From Carcharhinus longimanus (Eukaryota): a stretch of 64,000 nt of DNA. Shown here piece by piece: positions 5,495 to 47,600 of this stretch. The first letter of the stretch is position 1, and every line of letters starts with the position of its first letter. The notes below the pieces were generated by a model that did no database searches, was not told where the DNA came from, and saw only the letters and a program-made list of their open reading frames with translations. The DNA is taken from positions 67,175,627-67,239,626 of the forward strand of contig JASCQW010000132.1 in the NCBI GenBank assembly GCA_030264375.1, in the 5' to 3' direction. The position numbers and the translations under genes are program-made.

Positions 5495-5540
5495 CACAAG
5501 GAGTCTGCATGTCTAACATTTAGACATGCTCAGCTTTGTG
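5495..5540 (+). promoter_or_regulatory. Collagen 5' stem-loop (LARP6-binding) enclosing a uORF and the main ATG
   Basis: CACAAGGAGTCTGCATGTCTAACATTTAGACATGCTCAGCTTTGTG; GCATGTCTA/TAGACATGC stem; uORF ATG TCT AAC ATT TAG at 5509-5523. Confidence 0.92.
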
Positions 5541-5607
5541 GATACACGGATTTTGTTGCTGCTTGCAGTAACGACGTTCGTTGCAAGAGGCCAAAATGAA
5601 GATGAAT
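5526..5607 (+). CDS. COL1A2: COL1A2 exon 1 coding part (signal peptide, [27 protein letters not shown], phase 1)
   Basis: ATG inside the 5' stem-loop; donor T|GTAAGT at 5608. Confidence 0.96.
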
Positions 5608-20600: not shown

Positions 20601-23600
20601 TCATGATTCTCAATTATAAAGACACCCATTGGACAAGACTGATTAATATCTAGGAACAATCGTACAAATAAAACAGAGATAAATAGCTGTGATTTTGCCT
20701 AATATCCCAGGAATTGGAGCCTGGCTGGAGGTTATCAGACACAATGCACATTGCTAAACTGAATTAAATTATGTGGCTGTGACTCATACAAAAGAGTACA
20801 GTGCCAAATATGGCCAGAAACTGCTTTGTTTAATTATTCCCCATAGTTGTGGTTTGAGATGCCAAATGTTCTTTCTGCAGCACATATGTGAGAAGTTACT
20901 GTACTGTGAGAGCAATGATTCATTCTTTGTCAAAAGGAAACACATTTTAGCTTCATAGCCGTGTATATCCCAGAGCAGAAACGAGAAACAGATTGATAAC
21001 TTTAGGGCCATTAATTGTTCACCTGGCAGAACATGGTAAATGATACAAATCAAATGTTTGCTGTTTTCATCGTAACTTTAAGACATTGGAAGCTGCTTTG
21101 GGGTTTTGAAACTGCAGTAAACAGGGGACATACTTTAAATATATATTTAAGTTCACCATGCAACAACCAAAATAGTTCTCCAACACACATGCCAGACGTA
21201 ATTCTCTGGCTATCCAACACCATGGATGCAGGTTGCCCATGAGCAGTCAACAGTGGTTAGGCAATTAGAGGGAAAAGTGATAGCACTCTCTCCCTGCCTC
21301 CCCCCTCATCCTCCCCCTTCCAATTTCTTACCCATGGTGGATGCACACCCCACTCAGAGCCCAGAATTGACCCAGAAGTGTCTTCTTGACAGCAGACTGG
21401 GAGCCATTGAAACCTCCTTTCAATTGCCTCAATCAATGGAGTTTCTGCTGCACAACATCATCAGCCTGACAGTTGTGCCAATGCTTGATTTTTTAATGTC
21501 TCACAATGTTACATTTTGAGGCATCTTCAAGATTTCCTCCCTGTCTCAGCATCGCCCACCTCTCCCAATGTGGCTACCAGCCAGATAGTATTGCAGGCCT
21601 TCTGATTGGACCTTGTACTTGCTTGGTCTGCCCACCATCCTTAATTGGATGGGACTTCCAGAAGAGGCTTCTTAATTGGTTGCCTCCTGGAAGATTGCGT
21701 TCAATGTCCTGCCACCATCACTTCCGGGTACCCCATCCCAAATTAAGGCCAACTTTGGGATCATGAAATTTCAGCATTCTATAGTTAATGATTTCTTTTA
21801 GATAACTTGATGTTATACAGATGGCAACTTTCTACAAGAACCAGAAATGCTTATTTTCTATTGAATCATCTCAGAAGTTTCAAAATTTACATATCATAAT
21901 TCAATTGAAGAATCCTCAGCAATTGGAGATTTAACAATGATCATGGCAGATAGTAAGAATCTGGTATTATTTCTGCTTTGAATCATATTTCTGATAATTT
22001 GAAGAAGCAAATGTTTATTAAAACTGAATCCAGGTACACTGCATAAACATTTCTTTGCTTTTGTTTGATAAGGGCAAATCTTTCTTCTTCCTTCCCCACC
22101 CCGCGCTTATTTTTATCAAGCCTTTTGGTTCAGCCCTTGGGCAAACATGAAAAGATTGCTACAGTATAGTATCATGACAGGCCAGAGAAATTCACATCAA
22201 TATCCTTCAGTTTTATGAAGATGATACTATACACATTATGCAGAGTAAAAGTAGTAAGTTGAATGGCAGAATTCTCTGTTCTCTTATATCTTGTTGTTAT
22301 CTTGCAGCAGATGTAAGTGGGAAAATGTTATTACCATTTAACATCACCATGTTAGCATTCTCTTCCTCAAGCCAGTGAGGAAGTGATGGACAGTCTGACT
22401 CATCCTGAGTTAAAGTTGCTTGCTTCAAACAAAATAATAATTTAACTTCTTAGTATTGCATTTACAATTAACCCTTCCATTTGCACAACTTTATTCAAAT
22501 TAATAGATATTTTTGAATCTTTTCTGTCAAAAAAATGACTGACCTTTATCAGGATTAGTCTGTAAATGGATTATCTCTGTTATTAAATATGAGCATTGAG
22601 GAATCTCTAAGCTATAAACAGAGCCTATGTCATTCATCACTGCAATAGATTTTCCACTGTTACCAGAACAGTGGGCATGTGCATTTCTCAATTTTATGAA
22701 GAAAGTACAGAGCAAAGCAAAATTTCTTTTGATTATGCTTGTTTCAAACTGATGAGATGTCAGGTAATGATGTATTTTGCAAAAATTGGGATCTTTGTCC
22801 CAAGGTAAGATTAGGAAGTTTCATATGCTTTCTTGTGTTAGTAATATTGTAATAAGCAAGAAGTAAAATAAATGTGCCTTTCTTTATTTTTTCCCAGGGT
22901 GAAGTTGGTAATCCAGGAGCAAATGGTAATTCAGGACTCGCGGTATGTGTTCCATCATTCAAAATATAAAAATAATGCCTATAACATACTACATAATCCT
23001 TACCAATAATTTTGTACCTATGTCATATAAAGCATTTAAAACTAAACGGAGCAAAACTAAACACTTTTTTTGCCAACAGGGTCTTCGTGGTGGCGCAGGC
23101 GAAAGAGGTCGTCCTGGATCTGCTGGCCCTGCTGTGAGTTTCAAGCTTTTAATATTTTCTCTGTTCATAAGTTCATAAGACATAGGAGCAGAATTAAGCC
23201 ATTCAGCCCATCGAGTCCACTCCCCCATTCGATCATGGCTGATCTGCTCCTCATCCCCATTTTCCTGCCTTCTCCCCACAACCTTTCAACCCATTACCAA
23301 TTAAAAATTTGTCTAACTCCTCCTCAAATTTACTAGCATCCACTTCACTTTGGGATAGTGAATTCCACAGATTCACAACCCTTTGAGAGAAGTGGTTCTA
23401 TCTATTGGTATCCCTAGCATGGAACTGCATGAAACAAGAGGCAGATCAGACAATTTGGCTTGGTGATTCATAGCCCTTATAATTATTTACTTATAAATTG
23501 ACAAATCAGCCTTCAGACTGAATGAGGATATGTTTTAATATCACCATTAATGTTTTTGAACATTATGAATTGTATGCCATTAAAATAATTTTCTCAGATG

Positions 23601-26600
23601 CATTTTTTCTATTTGTAATGCTATATTGTAATCCTTTCTAACATTTTCATGAAAGTTTTTATTTCAGTGTTTATGCTTATTTTCAATGTGATGCCTATTG
23701 ACCATTCGTCTTACAAGATTGAGCATTCATAAGTTTTAATAAATTTAATAATGCAATTTTTGTGTTTCCTTTAAGGGTCCCCGAGGCAGTGATGGTATGA
23801 CTGGACCTGCTGGCCCTCCTGTAAGTACGCAAATAAAACTTAATTAATCATTAAATTGACAAATGCACAACTATTAACAAGTTACAAGAGTAATTCTGTA
23901 ATATAATACCCTGAGAGTTACAGTCTCAGCAAAGTGAAGAGTGAATACTGGGCAACTTACTGTATAGCTAGCTGATGACTTCATTGCACAACCCAAATAT
24001 ATGTGTGCAGCATCCATATAATGAAAGCCTGAAATGTAAGAGAAACATTTCTGTTGCCTGGACCTCTCCAGAAGAGCCCTAGAGCCCTCAATAATGCCAG
24101 TGACAAAATTTGTAATAGTCTGCTACATACTGCACAACCCCACCATTATAAGGCCAAAGACCTTACCACCAGCTACATAGTAGTTATTTGAGGTACAGAA
24201 TGATGAGAAGGAGGATCAGGAGAATGTGGAAGGAAAGGAAGAAAAGGAAGGAACAATTCACGCATTTGCTATCTGTCATTGACTTAACTAAGAGCGATAT
24301 TAGTAATTGCAACCCAGTTTCCCCCATTCACAAACCTTTACCTTCTATCTGTCACTGACCATTACAGTGTCCACTGGCCACAATGATAGAATAGAAGTCA
24401 TCACAAAAGAAACCAGGTTTAAAAGTGAAATCATATAGCATACAAAAGTTAATTAACCTCCCTTGCATATTCCTTCAGTGCCTGTCCTCTGTGTGCCTTT
24501 GCCTCTCCTACAGCAGAATTTTATACCAGCTGGGATTTTACAATCCCGTCGAAGTCAATGTAGTTTTAAACAGATTGCACATTTTACAGCCCCAGCCCCA
24601 CTGCAATGTAGTTATAAAATTCCACTCGTAATGCTCCTACTCAATACAACCCCAGTGGCGACAGCAAGTGGAAGGCAACTGACTTACATGCTGGCAGATT
24701 GCAAGTGGTCTTGCAGGGCCCCCTTGAGCAGCTCCAGGCCTTGAGTGCCTCACTGCAGATTGCAACATCTCAGCTGGATGGCATCAGTCTGAGCTGCCTG
24801 GCTGACAGGCAACAACAAGGACACTAGTGGAGTGTTAGAAATGAGAAGATGAATGCTATCTTCCTGAGAGGAGACCAGTTTAGTGCCTCCTGGAGCCATT
24901 GACACTCTCCAAGCCAATGACTCAGAAATCCTAATAAAGTAAGAGAACAGACTGCAAAGTAAAAAGGTAGTGGAGGCAGGAAACCTAACAACCTTTAAAA
25001 AATGAGCTCTTGAAATATCATAACATTCAAGGATATAGGATAAGTACAGTAAAATGGAGTGCCTTTAGTGGTAGTTGTTACTGGTGCAAACCCAATGGGC
25101 CAAAGGGCCTTTTCTGCACTGTATAACTCTATGAGCAGGATCTTCCGGCTGCATTCGACCCAAGAGCAGAAAATCCCGCCTGAGATCAATGGATCTTTGC
25201 ATGGTCAGCCCCTGCCCACTACAGTTCCCTTGGCAGGCAGCATATGGACTCTATGCTGGACTGCTGTGAGGTTCTGAAAACCCCTTTGAACATTGTAGTC
25301 CACAGCTTTGATAACAGTAAGCTGACCTTGCATGATAGCAAGCTGAACTTTCACTGCAGCAGCCAGACATTGGGTGACTGCTGCTTCTGCTGCACTGGAA
25401 GTTGTGACATTAACCATCAGTTGCTTCGTTATAGTTGACTCCACAAGTATTCTCATGGAGAATACATTGACACCATTTCCAAGTCGAAAATAATGGGCTC
25501 CAAGCTCTGTGTAAAGTCTTGTGTTGAATTAGTGCTGGATTCCTTCATGCTTCTGGACATTGTCCACAGGATTTCTGATGGACTTACAATGCAGCAAGCA
25601 TTTAGTTGTGTATGTCCATTCAACATGCATCTGCAGACTGCCCCATTGAAATACTCATCTGAGTCCTAGGCAGCAGAACTTGTCTACACCTGAACCTTCG
25701 GTGAGCTGGCACCTGTGCTCCCCTTGCTCCCCCTCTTCAGGTCACTCAGGCCCAGTATCATACCACATGCAGATCTCACCTCAGTATGACCCTTTGCTTG
25801 GTGTTTTTCCAGTGCCAGGCCAAGTTTCATTTCTTGGATATCTGAAAGGAGAAATACACAATGAAAGAATTACAGTAGCGGGATGGGGGAAAATAAGTGT
25901 TGTGTGTCTACACCATCTACAAGTTCCAAATCAGAAAAAAAAGTGTAAAAAGATAAGGAGGAGGGAGGGGTGTGAGAAGATGGATTGGATATGAGGCTAT
26001 CTTTATCTTTAATAGTTTCATCCCCATTAGTGGCCCTATCCTCAGCAATCACTATTCCCATAATAGTTAGTATCACCTCCTCCATGAGGGTTAGGAAAAA
26101 CAGCCCACCTGTCTGTTTGTGTGTGTCTGTTTGTGTGTGCCTGTGTGTGTGCCTGTCTGTTTGTGTGTGTCTGTTTGTGTGTGTCTGTGTGTGCGTGTAT
26201 CTGTGCTTGCATGTCTGTGTGTACTTATGTCAATGTGTCTGTGTGTGTGTGTCTGTTTGTGTGTGCGTGTCTGTGTGCCTGTGTGTGTGTGTGTGTGTGT
26301 GCCTGTCTGTGTGTGTGTGTCTGTTTGTGTGTGTGTATCTGTGCTTGCATGTCTGTGTGTACTTATGTCAATGTGTCTGTGTGTGTGTGTGTGTCTGTCT
26401 GTCTGTGCGTGCCTGTGTGTTTGTCTGTATGTGTCTGTGTGTCTGTTTGTGTGTGTATCTGTGCTTGCATGTCTGTGTGTACTTATGTCAATGTGTCTGT
26501 TTGTGTGTGTGTGCGTGTCATCTGTGTTTCTGCATGCATGTCTGTTCGTGTGTGCTTGTCTGTGTCTGTGCTCGCATGTCTGTGTGTACTTACATCTGCA

Positions 26601-29600
26601 CTTCAGTTTGCCTGTGTGTCTGATTGTGTGTGTGTGTGTGTATGTCTATGCCTGTCTGTGCACGTGTGCATATCTGTGTGTGTGCATGTCTCTGTGTGTG
26701 CACGTGTGTATGCGTGTCGCGTGTGTAGCTGTGTGTACACGTGTACGTGTGTCTCTGCATGGGCATGTTTGTGTTAGTGCACGTGTGTGTGTGTGTGTGT
26801 GTGGTTGGGGGGGAGCGGCTAGGAGGGGGGAATCTTGCAGGCGGCGAGTGTTCCCCATCGCTCTGCCGNNNNNNNNNNNNNNNNNNNNNNNNNNNNNNNN
26901 NNNNNNNNNNNNNNNNNNNNNNNNNNNNNNNNNNNNNNNNNNNNNNNNNNNNNNNNNNNNNNNNNNNNCATGACTAACAACACCTGTTTCAGCCATAAGG
27001 CAGCTCCACTTAAAGAAGCACAAGGTTAGGTTTAAACACTGCAGCCAGACTAGCTTTAAGTGATGCTAGCCATTCATGATATTGGCCCCTGCTACTGTAT
27101 CAAGGTAATCAGCAGCATAGGGTGGGAATCGCTGGCCATTCATGCCGGCGGGATTCTCTGGTGTCGCTGCAGTGAATGGAGGTATGGCTGAGCACCAAAT
27201 TCTCCATCCTTGCTGGCAGTGGCAGCGGGTCATGATCAGGCAGAGAATTCGGCCAGTTAGTGTTGCCTGGGTGAAGAAAACATTGACATGAGCAGGCACA
27301 CAAAGGTGGCATGTTGCCCGCATTGCAATCAATAGATACAGGTTATCATGAAGCCTGGGTCCATTATCAGATGCAATTAAATTTCGTCATCAGTCCACCA
27401 ACATATATTATTGATATTACTTTGTTTTGTATATTACTGCTAGTCTGGTACTGCACATTAATAGTATGAAAAAATGATGTATAAATGCTAAGTTAGGTTA
27501 ATTTGTGTTATGTGACTTCCATGGAAGTTACTGTCCATGGTGGTAGGTCTGGAAAGGTGATATAATAGAATGTGGGTAGATAGGTACAATACTGGAAGGG
27601 TAGCTGTCCGGGCACTAATGCCTAATCTATAATAAGCAGGTCCACTCTGATGGCATTGAATTGATTTGAATGGAGGTTTTATCAACTTCTCCAATTACTT
27701 TAGTCTTCATTAGCATTAGCAAAAATGTTGCTCCTGCAGACTTTGATAAAGCACAGAAACACAAGGGTCTGAATCTTTCGTCCATTGGGCACATGCACTT
27801 GGTAAACAGTCATAATTGTTCTTGGAGTGTGATTTCAAGCCTGCTGGCCAGTTTATAGCCAGTCAGCGTAAAATGTGCACTCTGAAAGGCTGAGCACTGC
27901 CAGGGAGGACAGGAAAAGAGTGGGTGCTGAGAGCAGTGACAGTGCAAGAGGACATTTCCAACAAGCTTCCTGAAGTTTGACAGTTGCCTCAGGACCCAGT
28001 GACATTTGCACCAATATCTCTCCATATTACAGAAACAAGCAACTGGTAGCATAACACATAACACCTCAACCCTCAGACTTTTTTTTTATCCCAGATATTT
28101 AATGCCATCCTGAATTGGGAATGGTGAAAAAACATGGACACCATGTGGGTCACATAAAATTAGGGTCAATGGCATGCTTAATGGACTTAGTTGCCCTTTC
28201 AACTGTCAGTGAGCACGTCCAACTCTTGTGCGTAACCATCGACTGAAATATTGCACCAATATATTGGGACATGTGTCTAACTTCTTACCGTGCAAGTTGA
28301 GAATGGACACCCACCCACCCAAGCTCTGTTAAAATTCTGGCCACAGTAAATTCTGGTATAAGAGGAACACAAAAAAGGCAAACTGTTAATATTTGCAATT
28401 TTATTTCTTTATAGGGACCCAATGGTGCAACTGGTCCCCCAGGCTTCCCAGGCAGCCCTGGATTCAAGGTAATGTTTTTAATGACAAAAAGTGAATGCAG
28501 TACAATATTACCGTATTGAATAGGTGAATACGTAAGATCATTTAAAAAAAAATCATTTGTGGTTTGGAATATCTTTGTATTTCTATCATCCTTTATCTCA
28601 AACCATTCAGAATGCTCTCAGTAAGTTGTCTACCAATTAACTGCAACCTGCCAATATTCATTAAAAGCATAATTTTAACATGTTTAAAGTCTAACAATGA
28701 TTTCCATTCACAAACCCTAGTAGTAACACTGGTTTCAGTTGATGGCCACAATTGTTCAGTTGTTTGAACATAATTCTACACAGACCAAACATTTAACTTT
28801 TTGTTACATAGATGACAAACTTATTGTATTCAATATCGTATCAAAATAAACATGTATAATCTGATAAATTACGGAATTACTGCAACTTTCCAAACTGTAG
28901 GTAAAGCATCACAATCAAGAATAACCATTGAGTTAATTTTATCTTTATGATAGCCATGTAGGAACTATTTTGAGTTAGGTTCCCACAAACCTAAGGGTAT
29001 GATAGTTGATAGCTGTAACGAGGCATCTATTTATCAGTTGGATTTCTTAACTGTAACCTATTATTTGTAATGCTTCAAGTATCACAGCAGTTCAGAAACC
29101 CAGTGCTACTAAAGGCACAAAACTCAAGTTTACAACATTCCCCAGAAATCAAAGGCAGGCAGAAATAACTAAAATTATGCTGAGCTTTTAACAACTAAGT
29201 TAATTGTCATAACTGTCTTAAGACATTCTGCCTACAAGAAGAATGTTGCATCCATAACTTATTTCAGACAGTAAAATAATATACCATCAAAATGAGCTTA
29301 TCAATTATTTAGTGAAGTCTCAATAAAATGGTGACTTTCTAAGCCTGTGAAAGTTATGCTTTGGTTTTGATCTGTTATCACCTCAGTCAAGGAAATGAAT
29401 ATATTATTTATTTGTGGATATGAAAACATTAAAAGTAATCTGTTTCCTTCTATTCTCAATAGCAACCTCTTATTAGACCCAACAAATTGATCATTATATT
29501 AATATAGTATTAATTTATATCACCAAGTAAAGTCAAAAGCACATCTACTTTATAATTAGGTTAGATTCTGGAACGGAATGACAATCATTCAGCTGTACAA

Positions 29601-32600
29601 AAAAAATCATCAATTTGGTGATTAAAAACCTTGAAAGGTTCTTCAAATACTGAATGTAAATACGGTGGCACAGTGATTGACACTGCTACCTCACAGCGTC
29701 TGGGACCTGGGTTCAATTCTGGCCTTGGTCACTGTCTGTGTGGAGGCTGCACGTTCTCCCCATGTCTGTATGGGTTTCCTCTGGGTGCTCCAAAGTCCAA
29801 AGATGTGTGGGTTAGGTGCATTGGCAATGCTAAATTGTTCCTTAGTGTCCTAAGATGTGTAAGTTAGGGTGGATTAGCAGGGTAAATATATGGGGGGGTA
29901 GGATGCTCCATTAGAATGTCCATACAGACTAGATGGGCTGAAAGACCAGCTTCTGCACTACAGGGATTCAATGATTTTTGTGATAAATGTCCATTTTTCA
30001 TTGTCCATTAAAATTATTCAATGGTAGTTAATTATTGTTAGATAGCATCTATTGCAGCAACAATTCAATTTGTTTTAACATCCTCATGAAAACAAAACTA
30101 AAAAGAATTTGAACTTAAATAGTGCATCACCAAACCAAATTAGACAGTTTACCAGTCTGTAATTTTCAGTAATCGGGTTTGGTGAGAATATTGAGTGTTT
30201 GTGCTAGATGTGTTTAGTTTTGTATTAATGAGCTTTTAGCACCTTAATTAGCACAGCATAAGTGTGGTAACAACCTAGATTGAATATACAAGTTGATTTT
30301 CTTTTACTTCCATATAACATAGGGTGAGGTTGGACCAGCCGGTGCTCGTGGTGCATCTGGGGCTCAGGGCGCTAGAGGTGAGCCAGGTGCTGTAGGTCCA
30401 GTTGGACCAGTGGGTCTTCCCGTAAGTAGTTTTGGTAACAATATCATTACTACCTCTTGAGATATGATTTTACCTGACTGGATAAATTGCACCTACAATA
30501 TTCATTATTCTAATCCTAGGGTAATGCTGGTGCAAACGGTCTCACCGGAGCAAAGGGTGCCATGGTAAGTACATATGACACACCTATTTAGTACTTTCAT
30601 GAACAACCTCATTGATAAATCTACTTTCATTTTAAAATAACAAATGTTTGTCTTGTGCGTTTTTTAAAATAAAGGGTGCTCCAGGTATTGGTGGTGCCCC
30701 TGGTTTTCCAGGACCACGTGGTCTCGCTGGCCAAGCTGGAGCAGCCGGACCTGCAGGTCTTCGGGGTCTCAGTGTGAGTAACAAATATAATCCTATAGTG
30801 ACACAATTACTAGAAATAACTCATTCTTTGATTACAATAATGGCATTTTATTAAAGTTATAAGTAAAATTCTGAGAAGATTTTCCTTTCCTAAACTCACC
30901 ATACAGGGTGATCCAGGCGTTCAAGGTGTCAAGGGTGAGACCGGTGCCAAAGGCGAGCGTGTAAGTACTATGTAATAAGCATGCATTTTATATTTTAATT
31001 GTGTAATTTATTTCCTATTTTTGATTATGCATTGCCCATGTCCTCACCTTTTTTTTGCTCCAAAACCAGGGTGACATTGGCCCAGCAGGTGCCCCTGGTA
31101 CAGCTGGTGAAGAAGGAAAGAAAGGTCAACGTGGGGAACCTGGTTCTCAGGGACTTCCTGGAGTTTCCGGTGAAAGGGTAAGATGAATTTTATATCCTAA
31201 GAATTACATCGACACATGATTTAAGTATATGTAGAGATCTTCAACTTTAAAACAATAAGTCATGGTAATTCTGAAACGATGAAATAAACTAATAAAATGC
31301 TTACAGTTATAAAGTCCTAGTATCCTGGCTGTGATCTAATGAATGTCAGATTATTAAAAGATTTTGCATACTCATAAATTAATTTGTGTCTGAATACAGT
31401 TGATAATTAGAACATATTTGGATATTTTAAACAAATTTTAATGAGCTGATCACAGGAACTTTAGTGGAACGATCCTCTACACACAAGCTAGACATAATAG
31501 TTTTGACGTCATAATATTAGTCTATTTACTTCATAATAATTCTATATATATTAATAGTACAGTAAATGGGAAAATGTTAATTTTGAGTTACCATTCTTTA
31601 ATAGTAAGCTTAACTCATTCACAGTTCATTCCCAGTTCATTAAATTCTCTTTAATTAAAAGAGATAAAGTAGATTTTTTTCAACTTTTTCTCTCATTTCA
31701 CATGCAGGGTTCCCCTGGTCCCCGTGGTATCCCAGGTCGTGATGGACCAGTTGGCGGCATGGTAAATTTTGCCTTGTTATGCTTAGTGCATCGAGTAAAA
31801 AATGAGAAACCTGTTTTTTATTTTTAAGGAACAGTGAGATTTTCTTCATTAGATGATTAGAATGGTTCATTTATGTGAATCATTCAGAATGATGCTACCT
31901 TATTTTGTAATTCATTTCCAGGGTGCACCTGGCAGACGTGGTGAAGCTGGTCCTGCTGGTGCCAAAGGACCTCCTGGTGACGTTGGACGTCCTGGTGAAA
32001 GTGGTATGCATGGTGCTCGGGTGAGTGAAATTGAAATAACTATCACAGCAATAGCCATAGATGTACAGCATGGAATTAAACGTTTCTTGAATGATATTTA
32101 TCATTTATTCATATACTTTTGGATTTATTTCTCACTCAGATATACCCCCTAGTTTTTTAAATGCTAATTAATTGTAAATGACATTTTAGTAGAAACCCCC
32201 AGAATTAAGTTGAAGACAATAGAAATTATTTCTTTATTAAAAAGTACCATGTAACTTACACATTTTAACCTATCTCCTGATTTTGTAAAAATAAATTTGT
32301 CCTCAAAAGAATGTATTTTCACTGATTTTGTTTTTCTTATTTCTTACTTTGGATATGGGCCAGATTTTACTGCCAGGGTGGGCGAGGCTCGCAGAACGGA
32401 ATTCTCCGTTGGCCTCAGGTGGGATTCCACGAGCCTCGTCCGAGTGAGGTCATAAAATTCTGCATATGATGTTCCATTGGTTTTTCTAAGATTTGAACAC
32501 TGTAAGAAGCAACAAACTTTATTCGGACAAATGTGATTGTTATCACTCCCAATTAAAGTTAATCCTTCAGAGTTTTTAAAAGAGTTTGCACAATGAAGTA

Positions 32601-35600
32601 AGTGTCATTGAAAATATAAAATAAAGTATCTTTGCTGTATACACGATGGAATGAAATCTAAAATTGTTTTGCCTCCTTAACATTTATAGGGTCATATTGG
32701 ACAACCTGGTAGACCTGGCGCTGTGGGAAATCAAGGTGTTGCAGTAAGTTTTCTCNNNNNNNNNNNNNNNNNNNNNNNNNNNNNGTCTCGTAGGTAGTGC
32801 TGGCATTATAGGTGCTCCAGGCAAATCAGGTCCTGCTGTAAGTTGTTTTTGAGGTTTTCTGCTCCCCATTCTTGACAGCTTATTCAATCTAAAAGTAGGT
32901 TTGAATCAAGCATGGCAAATTGCATGGGGATATTACATGACATATGTTGCAGAACATCTAAAAATGAAAAGGCTTCAATTGTTAGGTTTTGCTAACGTCT
33001 AAAGTAACAACTCTTTTAATTAAGCAATTGAAATAATTTATTAATATAGGTACAGTAACTGCAAACACTGCGCCATTTAGTGATACTAACAATTACTTAT
33101 TTATGATGCAATAATATTGCATACTCATTATTATTTAACAAACGCTATGTCCAGTAACCTGAAATAATATTTTCTTTCCATATTGTAATTGAAATTTCCC
33201 CCCACACAAAACCTGTACTTCACAATTAATTCAAATATATAATTATGGTGATCGATTACCCAACTCATGTACTTATTTTAAAAATACATGTTTAGGCATA
33301 ATCCATATATGGTGTTATGAAATTCAAAATAGTCTCTTAAATACAACATTGCAATCACATATGTATGAGAAGGCACACAAGGAATTCAATGTATTAAAAC
33401 AGTATTTGGCTACATAAAAGACAAAAAGTCAGAATAACCTGCTTGAGAAAGTAAAAGTGTCCATATGGAAACATTTTGAATGTTATATTAGAACCCTATT
33501 ATGCACTGAGCACAAAGAATTCTGAATCATATTAAGAGCATCAGCCATCTCAGTACAATTACAGCAGTCGATTTTGATTTGGTTGCTGTTTTATGTGTTA
33601 CTGTCAAGTGATCATTAGAGTATTATTAAGATTATAATATCCTGATTTAAATCCCAGCCCCTCAGACCAATACATAGACCAGTAGATTAAAGGTATAAAT
33701 CCTACTGCAATTCACGTATCACTGGATATATTATAGGAATAATAGTAATTCTCAGTTGTGTTCCCCAAACGACAATTATCTTCAAAATAGAATGTCATCC
33801 TTGGAATACTAAAGCGTACTAATGTGTTAGATTTGTGCATTGTACCTATGCCAACTACTATGAAATTACAAATGAATAACCCATGCGGAATATTTACTCA
33901 AATGTTTTTGCAATAAGTAATAACATGCATGGAAGTAAAATAATAAACCAAAACACAATTAATTGACTTATATGCAAAAATAATCTCCAGTAACTTGTGA
34001 AGAACATTGTTTCATTGTCTAAGATTGTACATTTTAGGGCCCAGCTGGTGAAGAAGGTCGCACTGGTCCCCCTGGTCCTGCTGGCGCAAGAGGTCAGGCT
34101 GGTATGATGGGCTTCCCTGGTCCAAAGGGTGCTACTGTAAGTGACAGTTACATTTTTTGTCAGTAAATAAATTCTAAATATTCTGTCTTAACATTTTCTG
34201 AGTAGCCTTTACAGTTGATCTATAAATACCTTTGTTGCAAACTGAAATTATTTAGATGATTTTTAAATAAGCGTTTCCTTAAAAACGTTTAATATTTAAT
34301 GAAATTTAGAAGTATTAATTTATATTATAGCCAAATCCTTGGTGTAATCTAAGAAGCTTAGATGCTTAAAAATAGCTTTAGTTGGATTAGCAATAAGTGA
34401 TTGGAGGTTGATTCTATGACTAAGGCAACGCAAAAGATGTTTGCTGGGGTTTTCTAGCTCCACTGTAGCAAGATCTGCCACAGGGGAGTGGCAGGCCTGC
34501 TAAAAGTCCATTGACTTTCAGCAAGATGGGGAGATCCCTGTGGCAGGCAGAGCTGGAACTTCCTGGCCATTGTTACTTATTGGCGAGCTAAATGTTTAAC
34601 GCGCAATTGTTTGGGTTGTGGCTGAGTGATTTATCTCTGCCGGTTCTGGCATTTTAACATAACTAAAACCAGCTCCGGAAACTGAATGGCAAAATTGTCA
34701 GCCTGGGCAATATAAATCCAGAGAACTAGCTGTTATTGTCTCAGTGCCAGAAGTTTGAAACATGGAAAGCAGCTTTAACATTGACTGCACAAGCTCTGCC
34801 ATATATTGGCTGGAATTTTCTATCTGTTGGAATTAGTGGGACCCCAACGTGCTAAGTCCCTACTGTGGGAAATTCTGTTGACAACGAAGGAAACCTTACA
34901 GTTGGATAATGTCGGGTCGCCTCTGCCATTGGGAAATACGCTGTAGCGGGTGCAAAAAGTCCCATCCATTGTCTGGTATTAAGCCCCCACATTTTGGTTC
35001 AGAAATAGACCCTATTTGTCAAGTTAAATAAAGTATAAGTTTATTTGAATTAATTTAGATGCATCCAAATGAGGTTTTTCAAAATTCCAAAGATTAAAAA
35101 ACTTGTAATGGGATCATAACTTATTCTTACTAATATATATGTTTTATTTCCTAGGGTGTACCTGGCAAACCTGGTGAGAGAGGCGCTATTGGTCCTGCTG
35201 GTCCAAGGGTATGTTTAATGCCATTAGTTCTTCTGTATGAGTTTGAACAGTATTGTTTACATTATTTTCCATGTAAAGTCAATGGATAATACACTCAAGC
35301 TTTAATGTGTTGTATTTTCCCAGGGACACCTACACTGGGGCCAAATGGAGCCCCAAATCACCGCCCACTAGGAGCAAGACAGTAGGGAAATTTTCCCAGA
35401 GGCGGCATCCTAATTGCCTGCCTCTCTGCTCACCAGCTAGTACCGTGAGTGTCTCCCAGTGCAGCCAGCACAATCAAAGGGCAAGCATCTGGCAAGCCTG
35501 GGCAATCCCATTGGGAAAGGTAGACACTGCTGAGTAACATGGGAGACCATATGGGTGTCTCAACTTGGAGGCCAAAATTTTAATAAAAATTTCAGAAGGG

Positions 35601-38600
35601 CCATGCCTGTAAGTCTGTTAGAACAGAGTCAAAACCACTCTGGCTAGAACATATGGCCTTTCTTGCTGGCAGGCTCTCAGTGGGACATGGGGCCATCGGC
35701 TTTGATAGCTCCAGGGCAGGTCACCTACATGAAGTTGGTGCCACCCACAAGTGGCAGAGGGTGGGGGTGGGGATGGGGGGCTCTGCTATCAGCAGTACAG
35801 CAAAATAAGATTGCCCTGTTTGTAAATCGGATACCACCGTCCATTCAGAAGGTAGCCAGTGTGACCTTGGAAACTTCTCCAACAGAAATACGCATGTACC
35901 CACTCCCTACTATTTTCACAGATCCCCTGAGTCCAAGCCCATCATCACAAGGTGAAAAAAATTCTGCCCAATATTATTTACTTAGGCACTTAAAGTAAGA
36001 GTGTGCTTTCATAGAACAATTTAAGTACATTACCCCCAACCCCCACTGGCATGGAAATTCTGCCATGAAATATAGCCATTTAAATTTTAATGTGTCTTCT
36101 GAAATTCTTTCCTCCAGTATCTTAGCAGAAATATCAATTGATTTATTTCAGATCGGTTTATGGCTCTACTAACATGATGAACGAGGAATTTCAGACCATT
36201 GTATTAGCACACATATGCAATATTCCATCATATAATTCAAACTGTAGTCCTTTTAGTCCAAAATGGTTATCTCTGCCTTAGCCTTAGACTATTCAGATAA
36301 TCAAAAGATTCTCAGAAACAGGTAGCTAGACAATACAACACTGTAAGGACTGAAGTGGACCTTCAAGGGGAAGGTACTTAAGAAAAAGTATGATAATATC
36401 TATTACAATCAAATGGCAGTTTGATGTTCTATCAGGCAATCTGGTAAAAACATGCAATGTGCTTACATTTTAGGAGCCCACCCTTCTTCAGTTATTCACA
36501 GGAATCATGTGCATTATATAGGACCTTAAGGAATGACTGAAAGCAAATTGAGAGGAAGGCTACCAAATTAAACAGGGAATTTCAAATTTGACCATAAATG
36601 GATTTCGCACTTCAGATCAGCCAAGATCTTATTGAATGGCGGGGCAGGCTCGAAGGGCTAGATGGCCTACTCCTGCTCCTACTTCTTATGTTCTTATGGA
36701 ACTTGCAGTGAATCCAGGCCACATGCCTAAAGCCTCAATCCTAAGGACCCTATCATTTTTGTGTCCTGGACTTATTTGAACTTGACAGCAAGTTGTAGGA
36801 ATAAAATAGGTACAGGTTATAGTTTCTGGACCTCAGAAAATTACCAGCGTCCACAAAAAGTGATCCTTCTGATCTCACATAACCTTAGAATAAAATATAA
36901 ATTTCTTGCCCTGTGAACTTTGGTTAGGCCTCTGGATGTCTGGTAGAAATTTAATTAGTGTGCACACTTCATCCTCATTTCTATTAGCATTACAGTCAGA
37001 ATCCTAAAACCCAAGGTTTTGGGTGAAAGAGACTGGACCCCTATTTCAAGAATTGCCTGAAGGTTGAACCAGGTGGACAGATTATTGTCCAAAATACTCT
37101 CCAGGTTTTCCTCTGCTCATCACTTCTTTCCCAGGCAAGGAAGGAATAGCCACCAATTGAAAATTGCTCCCCAGTATGAGAAAGTAACTGTTGTTAATAT
37201 TTTTGATCTGTTGCTCTTCTTAATTAAAGTTCTTTTGAGAATTACACAAAATAAAATAGATCATTTACTACATTTAGAAAAATGCAAAGATCTGTAGATG
37301 ATTCTCCATTTCTGGAAATGATATAACAACAATTCCTGATTCTTCAACAAATTCAATATTTGAACAGCAGGGCACTGTGCAGGGTATAGAATCACAAGAG
37401 TCTCCTAAAATGGCAGGCACAAAATGTAAGTTAGCTATTTGTTCTGAATGTTAAATTCGCCATGAGGAATAGAGACATGCATTAAGTTATGTTTAGCAAT
37501 GTATGTAATACCACAGACAAGATATTTTCTGATCTCTTTGCTTCTTAGGGTGTACCTGGCAAAGATGGTGAGGTTGGAGCACAAGGTCCTCTTGGTATTA
37601 CTGTAAGTAAATAATTACAAGCATATTACAATACTATGCCTTAAAATAGTGCTGTATGAATATTAATTATGAATGTTTAATTCCTTATATTTAGTTCATG
37701 TTTCTTTATTCTTAAAATGTGGGTCAATCCTAGATTTAAATTACAGAGAGGAACTTGATATTGTATAACATTTTAACCTGATTACATACTAATATTAACA
37801 GACTTTAATTTGAAAACATTAAGTTTTTATATAGGCTGTAATTTGAAATTTTCAAAATGTTTTCCTCATGCACTGTTATGCTGGAAGATGTTACATTGCT
37901 GCTAAATCAATAAATATATGTAATTGACTTACTAAGATTTTCATATTAGAAGGTTTTAAATGCCAATATTACTGCTGAATAAATACATTTACTACTTTTT
38001 ATTACCATAAATATTATGTTCATAAATTTGACAAGTTGGTTATACTTTTCACTCAGCAATCTGGACAGTTAAACAATTTTAATGTGTTTTTTCTTTAGGG
38101 TCCTGTTGGAGCAAGAGGTGAAACAGGTCCAGCTGGCGGTTCTGGCTTCCAGGTACATCCCTCAAAATGAGTATTCTTTCTTTATTAGATACAATTGAAT
38201 AAGCTTGTTGAATTATAATATTTTTGTGTGGAGCAGCAGAGTAAAATTACACATTTAAATAGGTAAAGCAATCCTGTTCTTTTTACGATAAACACAAATG
38301 GCTTGCAACTGATTGGTTAACTAGCCTTAAATTTAAAATCAACTGGTTTGTATAAATAATGGATGTTCAAGCATTTGTGTTAATCTGTGTCTTATTGATA
38401 TCACACTAAAGATATCCTAGAATCATAAAATCAATCACAGAAATCCTACAGTGCAGGAGGAGGCCATTCAGCCCTTTGAGCCTGCATGAACAACAATCCC
38501 ACCCAGGCCCTAACCGCATAATCCTGTGTATTTATCCTGATAATCCATGTATTTATCTTGCTAATCCCCTGACACAAAGGGCCAATTTAGCATGGCCAGT

Positions 38601-41600
38601 CCACCTAACCCGCACATCTTTGGATTGTGGGAGGAAACCGGTGCACCTGGTGGAAACCCAAGCAGACACGAGGAGAACGTGCAAATTCCACACGGACAGT
38701 GATTTGAGGCTGGAATCGAACCCGGGTCTCTGGCGCAGTGAAATAGCAGTGCTAACCACTGTTCCGCCCCTCTTCTTCAAGGATCAAAGCTAATGATATG
38801 AAAGTACAAATATTCAAGACATTCAGAACAATTAATTAATTCATTCATCTGAAAGTATTAGCGGGAAGAAGTTGGTATTAACAAGTTAAGCAACTCATGC
38901 ATTCATATCTCCAGCAATCATTTCTGTGCTTTTTAAATATGGTGTAATTACTGAGAAGAATAACATGAAGCGGTTTAGTTTTTATTCTTAAACGATAGAA
39001 GATTTTATAAATGTTATAAATTACTAGTCTTGTCTGCTAGCTACACATCTTCATGAATGAAGTCCCTTTCAGTTGATTTTGTAATCAAAATGTGCTAATG
39101 TAAAGAATTTTTTTTCTGTTATAATAGGGATCCCCTGGTCTGCCTGGCGCAGCTGGAGAGCCTGGTAAACCTGGTAATCAGGTAAGGCAGCCAATTATCC
39201 ATCCACTCCAGGAGAGGCAAAGTATGAGAAACAATCGTGTGATCTATATGTTTGAACTTAAATGTCGAGTACAAGATTATACCAATATGAACTTTAAAAT
39301 AATGATACCACTCCTACCCAGTTTATTGAGCAAACATTGGTCAGAAAAAATGGAATAAACCCACCCATTCACTGGAGATCCAGACCACTTTCATGTTTGG
39401 ACCTCATTAAAATTTTATTGTAGATAGAGAAACTTATTTGGAGTACTCCCTTGAGCAGACTTCAATGGCATGTTTAAGGACTAATAGTCTGGCCAATTTA
39501 CTTTAAGTTCTGCTAGGTGATGCTAGCACATGCACACGTGTTGCAGTATTGAACGCCTATCAGATTCCTATATATTATCAGACCCCAATTTGCATGAATG
39601 AATGAGGTTCCTCTGCTTCAGATGGCTATGGCGGCCCAGTCCAAAATCTTGACAGGCCAAAGATCAGCAGGAATAGGGGAATAAGTGCAACCATCACATG
39701 CACAGAGAAATGGAGCTGAAACGAGAGCGACATTTGCCTAATTACCTTCAATTCCTTGAGTTAATTAAATAATGCATCAATAAATCATCTTTTCTGCTAT
39801 TCTTTATGAATTGAGCAAAGCTGAAGGACAATTATGCTTTCAAATTTATATATTTGTCCTATCACAAATAAACTGTGGCAGTAATCAGCATAGTGACATT
39901 CATGTGTTTTAACTGTTGTTGAAAGAATTTCAGGTCGATTTTCGTACTCACAGCTGGATGATAATTTGGTAAGGCCCTTTATGGAACATATCTGATTTCC
40001 AGTGCATTCATTTCAACTGGATTAAAATCAGATGGTCCGTACAATGGGCAGACAACCCAGACAGGAAAGATGTTTCCCTATATTTCCAACATTCATACCA
40101 TCTTTTATTGCTATATGTGATGAAATCATTCATCCATAAAACTTAAGAAATTATTACAATAGCATTCAGAAAAATCTTCATCCTAGTGGTCAAACTTAAG
40201 TTTTTTTTAATTACAGTTTGTACTTTATAATGCATTGCATTGTCAAAATATCATACCTATGTCCATGCTTTTTCTCCACAGGGCATCCGAGGTGACGCTG
40301 GTGCTCCAGGAGTTGCTGGTACAAAGGTAAGCTTAAGTTCCTTTTGTAATTTTGTATTTTCAGTTTATTTAATTTTATGACATCATGATTAAAGCATTAC
40401 GGTTCATATTTTGCTCTTTAGGGTGAACGAGGTCCCCCAGGTGAACGAGGTGCTAAAGGTCCCCAAGGTCTCCCTGGTAACCGTGGTCCCTCTGGTGCTC
40501 CTGGTACTGATGGCGGAAAGGTATGCTGAAAACAAAAAAAAACTCAGCTCAACAAATGATGCCTGTTTTTAAAAATGTTCTTTCAAAACAAGGAAGTTGC
40601 TTGATTGATATCTTAAAATCTAATTGCAAACAACACAAACGTGTGATCGATTTTATCTAAACTCACTGAACAGCTCATTAGTGAATTTCTGTTGGCTTTA
40701 TTTTTAAGTTATAACAACACTGCCAGACATTGATCATTTGCCTCCTATCTAGAATTAATTGTAAAGCTCTAAAATTCATTTTATTTTAGAAATTAGAATA
40801 TTTAGTTTGAATAAATAATAATATAGATTACTATTAAACCAAAATAATCTAGGGTAAGTAAATCACCTGTACTTTTCCTTCTGTCTAAAAATCATGGGTC
40901 AACAGACCTTCCCGTTGTCCGCCCCTCACCTGCTTCAATTTCCATGGAGGATGGGCTGGAATCAAAGTCAGAGTTTGCACTCTTGCAAAAGGCAATTTAT
41001 ATATATGTTTGTAGCTTTCACAAATATTATGCTGTGGTAAATCATTCTCTGATATCTAATTAGATGCCACTATATTTTGTGCAAGTCCAGATATCAGCTT
41101 GTGAATTAAAGAGAATAAAATTAGGTTTATTGATGCCAAATGAGTTGATTTGAACAATATGTATAAAGAAATATATGTGACACAATGGGTCATGAATAAA
41201 ATGCATTTAATTTAGAAGTTTAGACTTGAGGAGGATATTAAAACCCAAGCTGAGAGTTCGGCAATGAGAGGTAATGAGAAACTCTCCCAATATGTCTCAC
41301 TCTCCTTTACTCAGGTGTCAGCTAGCTCCTAATATTGGATTCCCATTGTAACTGCTGTGTCAATATAAAATGTATTTCCTTTTGAAGGTGATGGACAGCA
41401 TTTCTTTAAATTCATGGGGATTGGCTGCAGTTTGTAAATTATAATACAATAAAAACCTCACACAGTGGAAAAAATATGAAGTGAAACCGCTTCGAACTGG
41501 CTATATGCCACTAAACTATGAATTCAGCCAGAACTTCCAGGGAAAATCTAATCAGTCATTCACAAATGATACTTTCTCCCTTGTCACTGATGTTATTTTC

Positions 41601-44600
41601 TCACAATTTAATTCTTAAGTTTCTAAACACATTTTTACAGTAGCTAATAGGAATATTTTTAGACGACTCATTACCAAGCCTCTGCTTTGGTATCATCTCC
41701 TTTAGCACTTGCAATATTTTTTTGAAATCATTTAAACATATTTCACAGTGGATTTAAAAGGGGACAAATTTATATTCTTCAACTTCTCTTGTATAAGAAC
41801 TTCAAATTTCATATCATCATCTATCATAGTTAAGTTGTGTTGGTAATATACTGGGGTGTCATGCTGACCGTTAGGGGAGAATCTTCCCAATCCCCCGAAG
41901 GCAGCTCTGCAGGCAGGATGGAAAGCAAAATCAGAGATAAGGGCATTGGGTCGGCGCCCCGACATATTGTCATCTCTGGGTGGTCATGCCAGAAGTGGGG
42001 TCAACATGGCACTGGCTACCCATCAGGCAACGGTAGGAAGTCAATTAGTTAAATTATATGCCCAATAGGGGGCATTGATGAGGACACTTGGTATCAAAAC
42101 AGACCATCAATGAGTGCAGAGCCNNNNNNNNNNNNNNNNNNNNNNNNNNNNNNNNNNNNNNNNNNNNNNNNNNNNNNNNNNNNNNNNNNNNNNNNNNNNN
42201 NNNNNNNNNNNNNNNNNNNNNNNTGAAGGCCAGGGAGGGCCATCGAAGCAAGAGGTTTGTGGGTATGAAGGGTTGTACTCAAAGCTGCCACCAATTCTCT
42301 GGAGGGGTTTTCCTACTCTAGTGGACTCGGATCTCTTTATTTTCAGTATTTCATTCACACTTCCAAGGACGCTTCCATTCTGAGGTGTCCTTGAAGTTCC
42401 CTAGCCCCCTCCGCAGAGCCCACCTCTCCAAGTGAGGCTGCACAGCTTCTGGCCATCTGATTGGACCTGAACCTCAGAAATGACTAGCCATCCTTACCTG
42501 GAGGTCACCACCCAGAAGGTCACGTGGCAGTGTAAATTACACATCAGCACTGGATCAGGACTTGGAGATGGTGCCTACACCTGAGGATAATCTATCAGCA
42601 AAATATTCTGCCCTTAGTTATCCAAAGTACATAACTGAAACTAGCCTCCTTTTAAAAGGGGTTTATGGTGTTACCTGGATTTCTTAGAAGGAGGTAACAA
42701 AGGGGCTTTCAGTATTTTTGAGTGTGGCATTGTACTGACTAACTCTTGACAATCTTCATCAGTTGATCTTTATTCCTTATTAGGGTGAAGTTGGTCTTGT
42801 TGGTTTGATTGGTAATCCAGGAGCCCAAGGAGCTCAGGGTATGCCAGGTGAGAGAGGTGCCCCTGGAGCCCTTGGCCCCAAAGGTGAAAAGGTAAGTTGT
42901 TTTTAATATTGTGAACCTATTTTGGAACAGTCTGCAAATGTCTTAAAAGCTTTCCCTTTTTAAGGTCCCCTAGCTTCCAAGTACATTTGTAGTGTTGGCT
43001 TCTTTAGCCTCCCCCTGCCGCCCCCAACTCCCATGCCCTGCATCACCACTGCACCAGTATCAATCTAAATAAAAACTGATAAAATTTACGGATCTTCTGT
43101 GCTTCATGCGAGAATCTTTATAATGATGTCTCATGCTGTGGTGAGAACTTTCCATCCATTCACACCAGTGGGATCTTCCAATCCCGCCACTGACATACCC
43201 CACCACAGGATTTTCAGCAGAGAGAGGTGCATTTGATGGAAAACCCCATGAGACCAGAAAATTGTCACCAGCCCATGGTAGGCTGCTTCCTGCCACAGCA
43301 AAACAGTTGGCAGGTTGCTTGGTAAATCCCGCCCAATGTGTTTTTATTATTTAGTTTTGTTTTTAATGATTTAAAGGATACATTATGGTGGATGTGTATA
43401 CAGAGCAACTTCAGCTCATGGAGAGAGCAATAAAATATTCCAACAAAAAAGTAAAAAATTAGTCGCAGTTTAAGATAATGCTTTAAAGAATTCATTGAGG
43501 TATTAAGCAACAATATGTGTTGTTATTTCTAATATATGCACCACCCTTTAATCAATCTAACTTATCATGCATATTTTTCTAGGGTGATGGAGGTCCAGCT
43601 GGTCCTCAAGGAAGTGCAGGCGTGGATGGCCCACGGGTAAGAGTCCCATAATTTATTGCATAAATTTAAGCCTTTAATACTGCTGTTTCTGTAAGTAAAC
43701 ACAATCTAACCTTGATCTTGACTTGAGCTTTGTATTAACATTTGATATTTTACAGGGTGCTCCTGGTCCTGCAGGTGCTCCTGGTCCCAGTGGCCCTCCT
43801 GGTGATAGGGTAAGTTTCTGAGCAATGATCAGAATTACTATTCTTTCTATTAATATTCCCATTGCTGTCCTTTATTACTGACATCAGTATCACATTGTGC
43901 TCATTAGTGTTCCAAATCAGATATTCTTTTCATAATAGTTTTCATGTCTGTACCTTTTCATTAACATCATCAGTTGACTTCCTTTCTTTTCAGGGTGAAT
44001 CTGGTGCCGCCGGTCATTCTGGTCCAGCTGGTCCTCGTGGTGCTCCAGTAAGTAGAGAACACAAGCACAACTGGGAAGATTAACTTCGACTGAGATCTTG
44101 TACTTTATGTTCTTCCAAGTATTTTTGTCAATAATGCAATAGAATTTCTGGTGTAATTAACAGTACTAGTAGTGACATTTTAATAGGGCCATTGTTTGAG
44201 AAGGAGCACGGACAATAAGATTATTTGGTTTGATTTTCCTCTGCCTAGGGCGAACGTGGTGAAGCTGGTCGTACTGGTCCTCCTGGGTTTGCTGGTCCAC
44301 CTGTAAGTTTCAAAACTTTCTCTTTATTTGAATTAATTCCATTTTGTTTCAAACAATTGCCTTTTTCTTATTTAAACCTTATTGTTTTCTCATGCAGGGT
44401 GCAGATGGACACTCTGGAGCTAAAGGTGAGAAAGGTGTTCCTGGTGCCAAAGGGGAAGTCGGTTCTGCTGGTGCTGTTGGTCTACCTGGTCCCGCTGGTG
44501 CTGTGGTAAGTATTCTGATGTAAGATAAAGAGTGATTCTACCTTCAATTGTTTCAAGTAATTCTGTTTATACATCCAGCTCATGGTTTAAAATAATATAA

Positions 44601-47600
44601 ATCATTTGACATAAAAATGGGCAGTGATCTGGTTTAATGCATCCTTGTCCAATTTTCTGCTGCCACCCCACTCTTACTATAACTAAAGCAGCAGTAAACC
44701 AGAGGAAAGTCCTGCCTGAACGGTCCAAACTCGAGGACAGTTTTGGTCATCTTTAAGATATTCCTGACATTGAAAATGAAAGATTAGCTGGGATTATGAT
44801 CCTAAGGACTAGTTTGCACAGAAATGAATTGTTGAAAATGCTGAAGGGCACAATTTATTTTAATGACAACATACTTGTGCAGCATATGATTGAGGTTGCT
44901 ATCCAGACAAACATTTCATTTTTTTATACCTGCCTCAGTTTATCTATGTCACTTAACCTGACATAATCAGTCTTACATGATCTGAAGAATTTGCAAAATG
45001 TTTCTAAATAAGGCATTGCCCATTTAGGACAGAGCTGAGGAAATAAAATTTCTCTCAGAGGGTTGCGAGACTTTGGAATTCTCCCCTTCAAAAGGTGGTT
45101 GAGGCAAAATTATTGGCTATCTTTAAGGCAGAGCTAGATAGATTCTTGATAACCTTTCACCCCTTTGCTTATCGGGGGGGTAGGCAAGAATGTGAAGTGG
45201 AGGTTAAAATCCGATCAACTGTAGTTTTATTGAATGGCGGCAGAACAGGTTTGAGGGACCAAGTGGTCTACTCGTGCTCCAAGTCCATATGTTTGCTTAT
45301 AACTTAGAAATGGTTCTTTTGGCAATAAAGAAATATTAAGTGAATATTGCTCATTGGCTTCAGCATTATTTTGTACATTTGAACCCCACAGTTTTACTCT
45401 TCTTTTTAATACCCAATTCTGTGCACACAATAGTAGATGTAATATTAGCTAGTTAGTCTTGTCCAGCACCTTTGTAATGTGGTGAGCATACACCTAGGAT
45501 ATGAAAATTGTACCTATCACCTCAGTACAGCATTTCCGTAGGCAATCTCACTGCAACAGTCATGGACTTAGGGCTTTGATGAAGGAAATAAGGGCATGGA
45601 AGAATACCACTGACAAGGCAGAGTAGTACCCTTAGATCAATATACTTGGTGTAGGGGCCAGACAGGGTAGAGACAGAGAGATTATTTCCAGTTAGAAAGG
45701 AAACAAGAACTCGAGGGCACAGCCTCAAAATAAGGGGGAGTCAATTTAAAACAGAGTTGAGGAGGAACTTCTCTCAAAGGGTAGTGAATCTTTGGAATTC
45801 TCTGCCCATTGAAGCAGTAGAAGCTACCTCGTTAAATATACTTAAGTCACAGGTAGGTAGATTTCTGATCAATAAGGGAATTAAGGGTTATGGGGAGCAG
45901 GCGGGTAAGTGGAACTGAACGACTATCAGATCAGTCATGTTCTTATTGAATGGCAGGGCAGGCTCGAGGGGCTAGATGGCCTACTCCTGCACCTATTTCT
46001 TATGTTCTTATGTGTGCCAGGCAGGGGCAGAATAAGTCAGCAATGTTGGTGTCTGCAGCGGAGCCCCTAGTGATGCATGGCATAGCCATGTGAAGGCTGC
46101 CAAAACTGTTTTCCATCCAGAAAGGCTAGGCTTTCCTCTCCGGCACTATCATTAGCAGACATTTGGTGGGCAGGAGTTCCACTAGCCTGCCAGACTCAGC
46201 ACTGACCCCAGTGAACTTTCTGCAGTTAGCTTAATTTAGGTCTATTAAATCTATTAGATGGTGGCCTTATGACGCTGATAAGTATTCCTGGGAACTCATC
46301 ACTGAAATCTTGTTGCTGCGGAGTTGCACTACCTGAAACAATTTAAACAGCTGAGCAATATTCCCAACAATTAGCATGCAGCTGTTTCCATTCTAAACCA
46401 CAAATTTCATGAATAAGAAACATTACATTGAACAACCTTCTCTCCATTAAAGTTGTTGATGCGGCCATTTAAACATTCTTGCTCATTATTTACATTTTAA
46501 TGTATCTGTTATTAATGCAAAAGTTTCATGAGCTATGATAGCAGAAGGTGCAACTGCTACTAAACTTCCAATCCTACTTTCCTGCCAAACAACAATGATA
46601 CAATAAAATCTTAATATAAACATGCTACGCAAGTTCCCTGGGAGGTGACCACTAAATCATATAATTCTAAGCTGGTAACAGCAAACTAGCTGCTTATTTG
46701 GTCAATAAAACCCCTTGCAGTTCATATGGAGCTTTATATTACGCATATGGAAACAGATGTCAAGATGCATACAGTGACTCCTACACCTTTGAGAAATAAG
46801 TTGCTTATATTGCCTTTTTGATGCTGCTAGTCAATTGAGAAAGGAACTAAATTATTGGCCTGGCAATAATTATTTATCATGGCTGCGATGGATCTGAGTA
46901 CAACAAATTGGTTCACATATTCGCAGTGCTTGCCAGGAATATCTCCAAGGAACAGTAATTCCGATGAGCTTTGGTGTGACTGGCATGCTGTATGAAGATG
47001 TACCGCAGGCCTTCAACAGGGGATGATTGAAGTTTTGAAGAATCCAGCACCAGAAATCTGCAAGGAATAATACATTTGATGCTTCAGCTTCTGTTTTCTT
47101 GCATTAACTTACCACTCAAGCTGCCCACTGTCATTTTAAGCTGCTCCACCTGGAGCCAGTTGTGCCGTAAATGGCACACTGAATACAGTTCCACTTGTTG
47201 CTTTATAATGCTCACTTGTCCACTCTGATTTATTCTGAGCAGAGCAATTACAAGAATCAGCATTCAATCCATCATTTGGCAAAGCAATATCACAGAAATG
47301 CGCAAATTGAATTTGAATAGCCATTATGCAAACATTAGTGCCAAACAATATTACCATGAGGAATCAACAAGATATTACCTGCTGGTCACTTCACGCTGGG
47401 TGTCATTTTGTAACATATAATGAAGATAGATAATACGTGTCTGCTGCAGCAATCAGAAAATGACTTCTTTGTAACAATCTCATGCATTACTTGTTATCAC
47501 AAAAACAAAATCTAACCTGTTATTTATATTTCTCTTCTCAGGGTCCTGCTGGAGTTTCTGGCCTACAAGGACCTGTTGGTTCTATTGGACCACCAGTAAG

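Follow-up and report, generated by a model that had tools for sequence, protein, structure and literature searches.

The triple helix of type I collagen is a textbook case of a constitutively spliced unit, and skipping of its exons causes disease. The question raised by the locus analyzed here, a stretch of 64,000 nt from Carcharhinus longimanus (hereafter, the window), is whether a vertebrate COL1A2 gene can hold two interchangeable versions of one helix exon. A preliminary description of this DNA had proposed that two exon-24 copies, here denoted 24a and 24b, are spliced in a mutually exclusive manner. The reading that we consider probable is that both copies are intact and very different from each other, and that they are likely included one at a time, giving two α2(I) chains of equal length.

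Because the signal peptide and the exons match RefSeq alpha-2(I) proteins, the gene in the window is, as judged from sequence, COL1A2, which encodes the α2(I) chain and is orthologous to the annotated alpha-2(I) chains: the N-terminus with its signal peptide is the same as in four RefSeq chondrichthyan alpha-2(I) proteins, and the C-propeptide matches those of fibrillar collagens. The helix exons were located by scanning the forward strand for Gly-X-Y runs, a procedure that recovered every one of them; outside the listed exons, only one run of five Gly-spaced codons was found in 37,683 nt of intron. Exons 7–48 are of canonical size throughout (the yardstick being what we take to be the canonical helix exon sizes), save for one additional 54-nt exon between exons 23 and 25. 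These exons sum to 1014 codons when both copies of exon 24 are counted and to 996 with one; when one triplet of exon 6 and five of exon 49 are added, the helix comprises 1014 residues with one copy and 1032 with two, and K87, G775 and K930 are in register, by hand count, when a single exon 24 is included. Thus, the exon inventory and the helix lengths of the preliminary description, including a pair of 54-nt Gly-X-Y exons flanked by exons 23 and 25 and no deviation in size elsewhere, were all recovered. Exon 49 (53351–53404) opens with six Gly-X-Y triplets, so that the helix could also be counted as 1017 residues. Of all helix-exon donors, that of exon 28 is the weakest (GTACAT, 38153–38158). 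The coordinates of the relevant features are collected in the table.

Features of the COL1A2 locus in the window (positions counted from the first letter of the window)
Feature	Position	Strand	Remarks
COL1A2 coding span, start codon to stop	5526..56977	+	signal peptide, last exon, RefSeq N-termini, C-propeptide
Exon 6	15084-15134	+	contributes one helix triplet
Exon 23, 99 nt, helix 328-360	31922..32020	+	joined to 24a in contigs of X18 and X19
Exon 24a, 54 nt, helix 361-378, putative derived copy	32690..32743	+	acceptor, GTAAGT donor; spliced in X18 and X19
Intervening intron as assembled	32744..32783	+	12 read bases and 28 N
Exon 24b, 54 nt, first base N, putative ancestral-type copy	32784..32837	+	donor
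Conserved intron block, candidate splicing regulatory region	32838..33020	+	identical in record 20 of X18
Exon 25, 99 nt, helix 379-411, carries RGQxGxMGF-type motif	34038..34136	+	

The two copies are of equal length and phase and both have intact donors, whereas the acceptor of 24b and the first base of its first glycine codon fall inside a gap of the assembly, so that neither this acceptor nor this glycine is visible. As claimed previously, they share almost nothing beyond the glycines, namely 27 of 54 nucleotides and 2 of 12 non-glycine residues. The 276 pairs of 54-nt exons in COL1A2 share 27.1 +/- 3.4 nucleotides on average; the likeness of 24a and 24b is no greater than that of any two such exons of the gene, which fits an old duplication. 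The spacer of 40 nt, 28 of them N, also stands as described before, except that the N run itself measures 29 (32756–32784) and reaches the first base of 24b. As assembled, with a gap whose size is an estimate, this spacer is under half the length of the shortest other intron, each of the remaining 41 introns between exons 7 and 48 being at least 95 nt long. There is no obvious reason for a DNA assembly to break at an exon edge, and the gap ends one base into 24b, near the start of a contig discussed below. The intron before 24a contains a high-copy repeat fragment (32374–32462) with a 17-nt inverted pair, over which the summed contig depth in the DNA run X1 is about 11,000.

Four other clade A collagen loci, with names assigned from sequence, were identified in the same genome, and one exon 24 was found in each; their exon 24 sequences all differ. 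The stretch from exon 23 to exon 25 is free of gaps in the COL1A1-, COL3A1- and COL5A2-like loci, so a search for an extra exon in COL1A1 matching the one in COL1A2 returned a single exon 24 in uninterrupted sequence; in the COL2A1-like locus, a gap of 2238 N follows exon 24 and leaves room for a hidden copy. The COL5A2-like gene and the COL3A1-like gene are arranged tail to tail (G000:C32:31.30-31.65 Mb, L031-L052), and exon 33 of the former was missed by the scan. Exons 35–47 of the COL1A1-like gene (G000:C154, L021-L022) are located behind an N gap of 8.3 kb, and several exons of the COL2A1-like gene (C184, L013-L015) are missing near gaps; additional exons could lie in both places.

Contigs from four of the 21 listed sequencing runs were placed on the window: X1, a DNA run, and X16, X18 and X19, three runs presumed to be RNA that carry no tissue labels; small-share runs outside these four were left aside. 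X18 and X19 come from two organisms and two studies, both organisms being close relatives of the source of the window. Each of these two runs contains one contig with GT..AG joints between exons 22 and 23, 23 and 24a, 24a and 25, and 25 and 26 (depth 707.5 in X18 and 7.09 in X19); the 24a joints, 32019>32689 and 32743>34038, are the same in both, and 24b is skipped. X16 covers repeat and intron pieces only, without any exon, and so is silent on splicing.

The joint between 24a and exon 25 connects both sides of the N gap, and 24b lies in N-free sequence upstream of exon 25, so the two copies are a genuine duplication inside one COL1A2 gene. The preliminary description had named an origin of the two flanks in different loci or paralogs as an outcome that would undo the duplication. 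Such a join of paralogs, loci or alleles at the N gap now appears hardly credible, even though the gap separates the two copies exactly, reaches one base into 24b and is unbridged by X1, the contigs of which end at 32744 and restart at 32831 (no contig over 32745–32830). Besides the presumed-RNA contigs of two runs that link 24a on the left to exon 25 on the right, the 24a/24b region has only one match in its own genome, each of the four paralogs has a different exon 24 of its own, and X18 holds both copies, 24a spliced and 24b unspliced only. Furthermore, allelic variation does not account for 27 differences in 54 nt, X1 being nearly identical to the window, with 0–1 letter differences over its long pieces. 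Exact 23-nt scans of metagenome contigs yielded no matches for either 24b or 24a.

For comparison with other species, RefSeq collagen entries in the supplement of a published data set, which are automated models labeled X1, one per gene, were searched by motif (PMC11976868). All four chondrichthyan alpha-2(I) proteins among the entries listed there contain one exon 24. Together with the contigs of X18 and X19, this amounts to six spliced forms, each holding exactly one exon 24 (6/6) and none holding both or neither (0/6), in a sample that is small and drawn in part from contigs, which drop rare variants. Constitutive joining of 24a to 24b, the outcome that the earlier proposal of mutual exclusion had to face, was thus encountered in none of the six, and no 24a-24b joint is present in the spliced contigs of X18 and X19. 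These observations also bear on the idea that the two exons behave as independent cassettes, some chains having 1032 residues with both and others 996 with neither. The reading frame sets no bar to such chains, as each exon is in frame, and the 40-nt length of the intron between the two is an assembly estimate; but none of the six forms has both or neither, the gap-free stretch of COL1A1 shows a single exon 24, and the assembled spacer is less than half the length of the shortest other intron. We regard independent inclusion as most unlikely.

Which of the two types each species carries was determined by a hand count of identities over the 12 non-glycine positions of exon 24. In the great white shark, Carcharodon (XP_041040371.1), 11 positions match 24b and 2 match 24a, and a 24b-type exon stands alone between exons 23 and 25; the bamboo shark, Chiloscyllium (XP_043545871.1), likewise has a 24b-type exon alone (8 and 1). 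The respective counts are 5 and 0 in Callorhinchus (XP_007907447.1) and 6 and 2 in the teleost Acanthopagrus. The skate Amblyraja (XP_032898443.1) has 1 match to 24b and 5 to 24a, that is, a 24a-type exon alone. As background, 121 in-register segments of the gene gave at most 3 matches for 24a and at most 5 for 24b (2 of the 121). The leucine at position 2 and the lysine at position 14 of 24b are found in all four paralogs, in the chimaera and in the teleost, and 24a has neither; since these residues are common to all of them, 24b would be the retained ancestral sequence and 24a the diverged copy. The constitutive neighbors provide a scale for these numbers: by hand count, exon 23 is identical at 30 of 33 positions to Carcharodon and at 24 of 33 to Amblyraja, and exon 25 at 31 of 33 to Carcharodon. 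By this comparison, the gene comes from a shark that stands nearer to Carcharodon and Chiloscyllium than to the skate. At the non-glycine positions, conservation against Carcharodon is 11/12 in 24b, 19/22 in exon 23 and 20/22 in exon 25, so 24b is, on these alignments, as conserved as its constitutive neighbors. Altogether, the comparison supports a coding role of both copies somewhere among elasmobranchs. Other protein sources added little: none of 28 candidates in protein databases was a full-length shark COL1A2 (101 further matches are mostly short fragments), a second protein set yielded 5 candidates among 172, none of the 4 examined being a shark α2(I), the short exons gave no informative match in the PDB, and no matching sequence was found in the supplementary material of another study (PMC8355665).

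The only contig that contains 24b, record 20 of X18 (depth 27.3), covers positions 32785–33855 and reads through the 24b donor into the intron. It differs from the window by 34 substitutions and 4 indels (6 gap letters), all located at position 33021 or beyond, where the rest of the intron (33021–33855) differs by about 4%. The 236 nt from 32785 onward are without any difference, which is unexpected at that place (permutation P 4e-5) and anywhere on the contig (0.002); the 183 intron bases alone remain significant (P 0.0005 at that place and 0.018 anywhere in the intron), and the absence of differences in the 53 visible bases of 24b alone is not (P 0.11–0.18). The conserved block contains GCATG at 32910, TGCATG at 32921 and CTAAC at 32992, with ACTAAC at 33085 just outside; we take TGCATG/GCATG and CTAAC/ACTAAC to be RBFOX- and QKI-type motifs, respectively. 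Individually, these motifs are not enriched: when the first 300 nt are considered, TGCATG is present in 6 of 47 introns. One intron among the 47 has TGCATG and ACTAAY together within 300 nt, a weak enrichment that was noticed post hoc. A search for docking-site pairing or a repeat around exons 24a and 24b produced nothing convincing, only short AT-rich matches.

Record 20 starts one letter before 24b. When two assembly paths converge, they merge at a shared letter, and this start is the point where a spliced 23-24b path and the unspliced path, both ending in G, would merge; we take it as a weak hint of 23-24b splicing. A joint between 23 and 24b or between 24b and 25 was found in none of the three presumed-RNA runs. 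Where two paths are of equal length, contig assembly tends to retain the commoner one alone, so the absence of these joints says little. We think that 24b is used, on the combined basis of shark models that carry it alone, the 236 unchanged nucleotides in X18 and, as a weak hint, the start of record 20.

The same facts could be read as an exon replacement in which both copies were once used and, in the lineage of the window, 24a became constitutive, leaving 24b as a relic that was silenced recently. The spliced contigs of both close relatives use 24a, with spliced 24b not seen, each RefSeq species shows one type only, and slow sequence change in sharks could preserve a relic for a while. Nevertheless, we consider this unlikely: a silenced exon would not be expected to match its constitutive neighbors in conservation against Carcharodon, or to remain unchanged, donor included, over 236 nt in a relative whose intron has diverged by about 4%, and the missing 24b joints are weak evidence for the reason already given. 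A second possibility is that 24b serves as an unproductive regulatory route, in which joining of 23 to 24b with retention of the following intron leads to a stop and lowers the output of α2(I). Translation past the 24b donor indeed meets a stop after four codons, and 24b with its downstream intron forms a 1076-nt contig in X18. This contig may as well derive from DNA or from ordinary pre-mRNA. Contig depth does not allow parts of the gene to be ranked, and it was not taken as an expression ratio anywhere in this work; moreover, amino-acid conservation and the full-length models with 24b in two sharks suggest coding use. An unproductive role is accordingly very unlikely in our assessment. The region 32838–33855 is represented in X18 by this single contig and the flanking long introns only by short pieces; this intron may be spliced slowly or retained.

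Returning to the mutually exclusive use of two coding exons, the following scenario can be outlined. Exon 24 would have been duplicated before sharks and rays split, a date that rests on one skate sequence; this divergence took place some 250–300 million years ago. In the lineage of the window, both copies would have been kept under selection since, each being used. As both are 54 nt long, reading frame and nonsense-mediated decay could not police the choice between them, so exclusion would have to arise through the geometry of splicing, through regulation or through quality control of the protein. Double inclusion is likely blocked by the very short intron, in which the branch point of 24b would lie too near the donor of 24a, as in the steric-interference pairs alpha-tropomyosin 2/3 and let-2 9/10; the assembled spacer of 40 nt, 28 of them N, would fall under the steric criterion of a donor to branch point distance of less than 50 nt (PMC5740500), and the argument assumes the gap estimate, as a true intron length near 95 nt would remove it. 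The conserved block after 24b would probably bind factors that favor inclusion of 24b in a particular tissue or at a particular stage. With two copies or none, a chain would be shifted by 18 residues relative to α1(I), out of register, and would probably be discarded.

With regard to the protein, 24a has two prolines in Y positions, a histidine and Arg368, and 24b, which is more aliphatic and hydrophobic, has a single proline in a Y position and places Lys374 in an X position. The swap would tune local stability or packing while leaving the D-period unchanged. The motif in exon 25 is of the VWF/DDR/SPARC-binding type (PMC5509119) and starts 18 residues after the swapped segment; an effect of the swap on this site is speculation.

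Exons 64A and 64B of human COL5A1 encode peptides located in the C-propeptide. They form an equal-length pair in a vertebrate fibrillar collagen and are regulated by cell state (PMC5740500; bioRxiv 10.1101/2025.10.06.680821), but, unlike in the COL1A2 pair, the peptides are non-collagenous and the mature helix is unchanged. Another parallel is let-2, the α2(IV) collagen gene of C. elegans, with its mutually exclusive exons 9 and 10 (PMC2119826), which are 30 nt apart and controlled by ASD-2, a protein that binds the downstream intron and promotes the downstream exon (PMC4165533). As assembled, COL1A2 resembles let-2 in having tandem homologous collagen exons with lengths in multiples of 3 and a very short intron between them; let-2 mRNAs contain one of the two exons, as do the six spliced forms of COL1A2. 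As described in these sources, the let-2 switch is linked to muscle and stage and proven in the worm, whereas the COL1A2 pair is known from sequence and from 24a splicing; and let-2 encodes a network collagen whose two exons differ mainly in a Gly-X-Y interruption, whereas in COL1A2 the helix is an uninterrupted vertebrate fibrillar one with 10 of 12 X/Y residues changed. Human COL24A1 and COL9A3 are candidates for mutually exclusive exons that, like the pair described here, combine a helix exon with an intronic alternative, although in these cases the partner is no clean Gly-X-Y copy and its length is not the same (42 vs 54 and 81 vs 72 nt); among the ten supplementary files of that survey that were examined, there are no entries for COL1A1, COL1A2 or COL2A1 (PMC5740500). 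In teleosts, too, type I collagen exists in several forms, by virtue of α3(I) (PMC4753508; PMC7465276), but there a third gene changes the whole chain, whereas in the shark one gene would change 18 residues.

The literature searched, with subscription papers and the older fish-collagen biochemistry mostly outside that search, yielded no account of alternative helix exons in COL1A2, and no paper was found that prints any of four motifs from the two exon-24 peptides. Mutually exclusive collagen exons as such are already known; for type I collagen of vertebrates, no publication describing a length-preserving switch within the helix was found in this search. In some species, the two isoforms may already appear as X1 and X2 in automated annotation. 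More tentatively, and with somewhat less than even confidence, we propose that sharks and rays share an ancient, regulated α2(I) switch, with the choice made by tissue or stage through RBFOX/QKI-type factors acting downstream of 24b, which would be convergent with let-2 and a splicing counterpart of the teleost α3(I) gene.

Where a database retains a single isoform for each species, exons that are not equivalent are compared at this position: among the entries listed in the supplement, that of the skate is of the 24a type and those of the sharks are of the 24b type (PMC11976868), and such mismatched exons can mislead collagen-based species identification and phylogeny. The 24a/24b pair also offers a clean pair of sequences for probing the effects of 18 residues on stability, packing and binding near the VWF/DDR/SPARC site. 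Above all, a natural, length-preserving swap in the helix would show a vertebrate varying its mature fibril by splicing.
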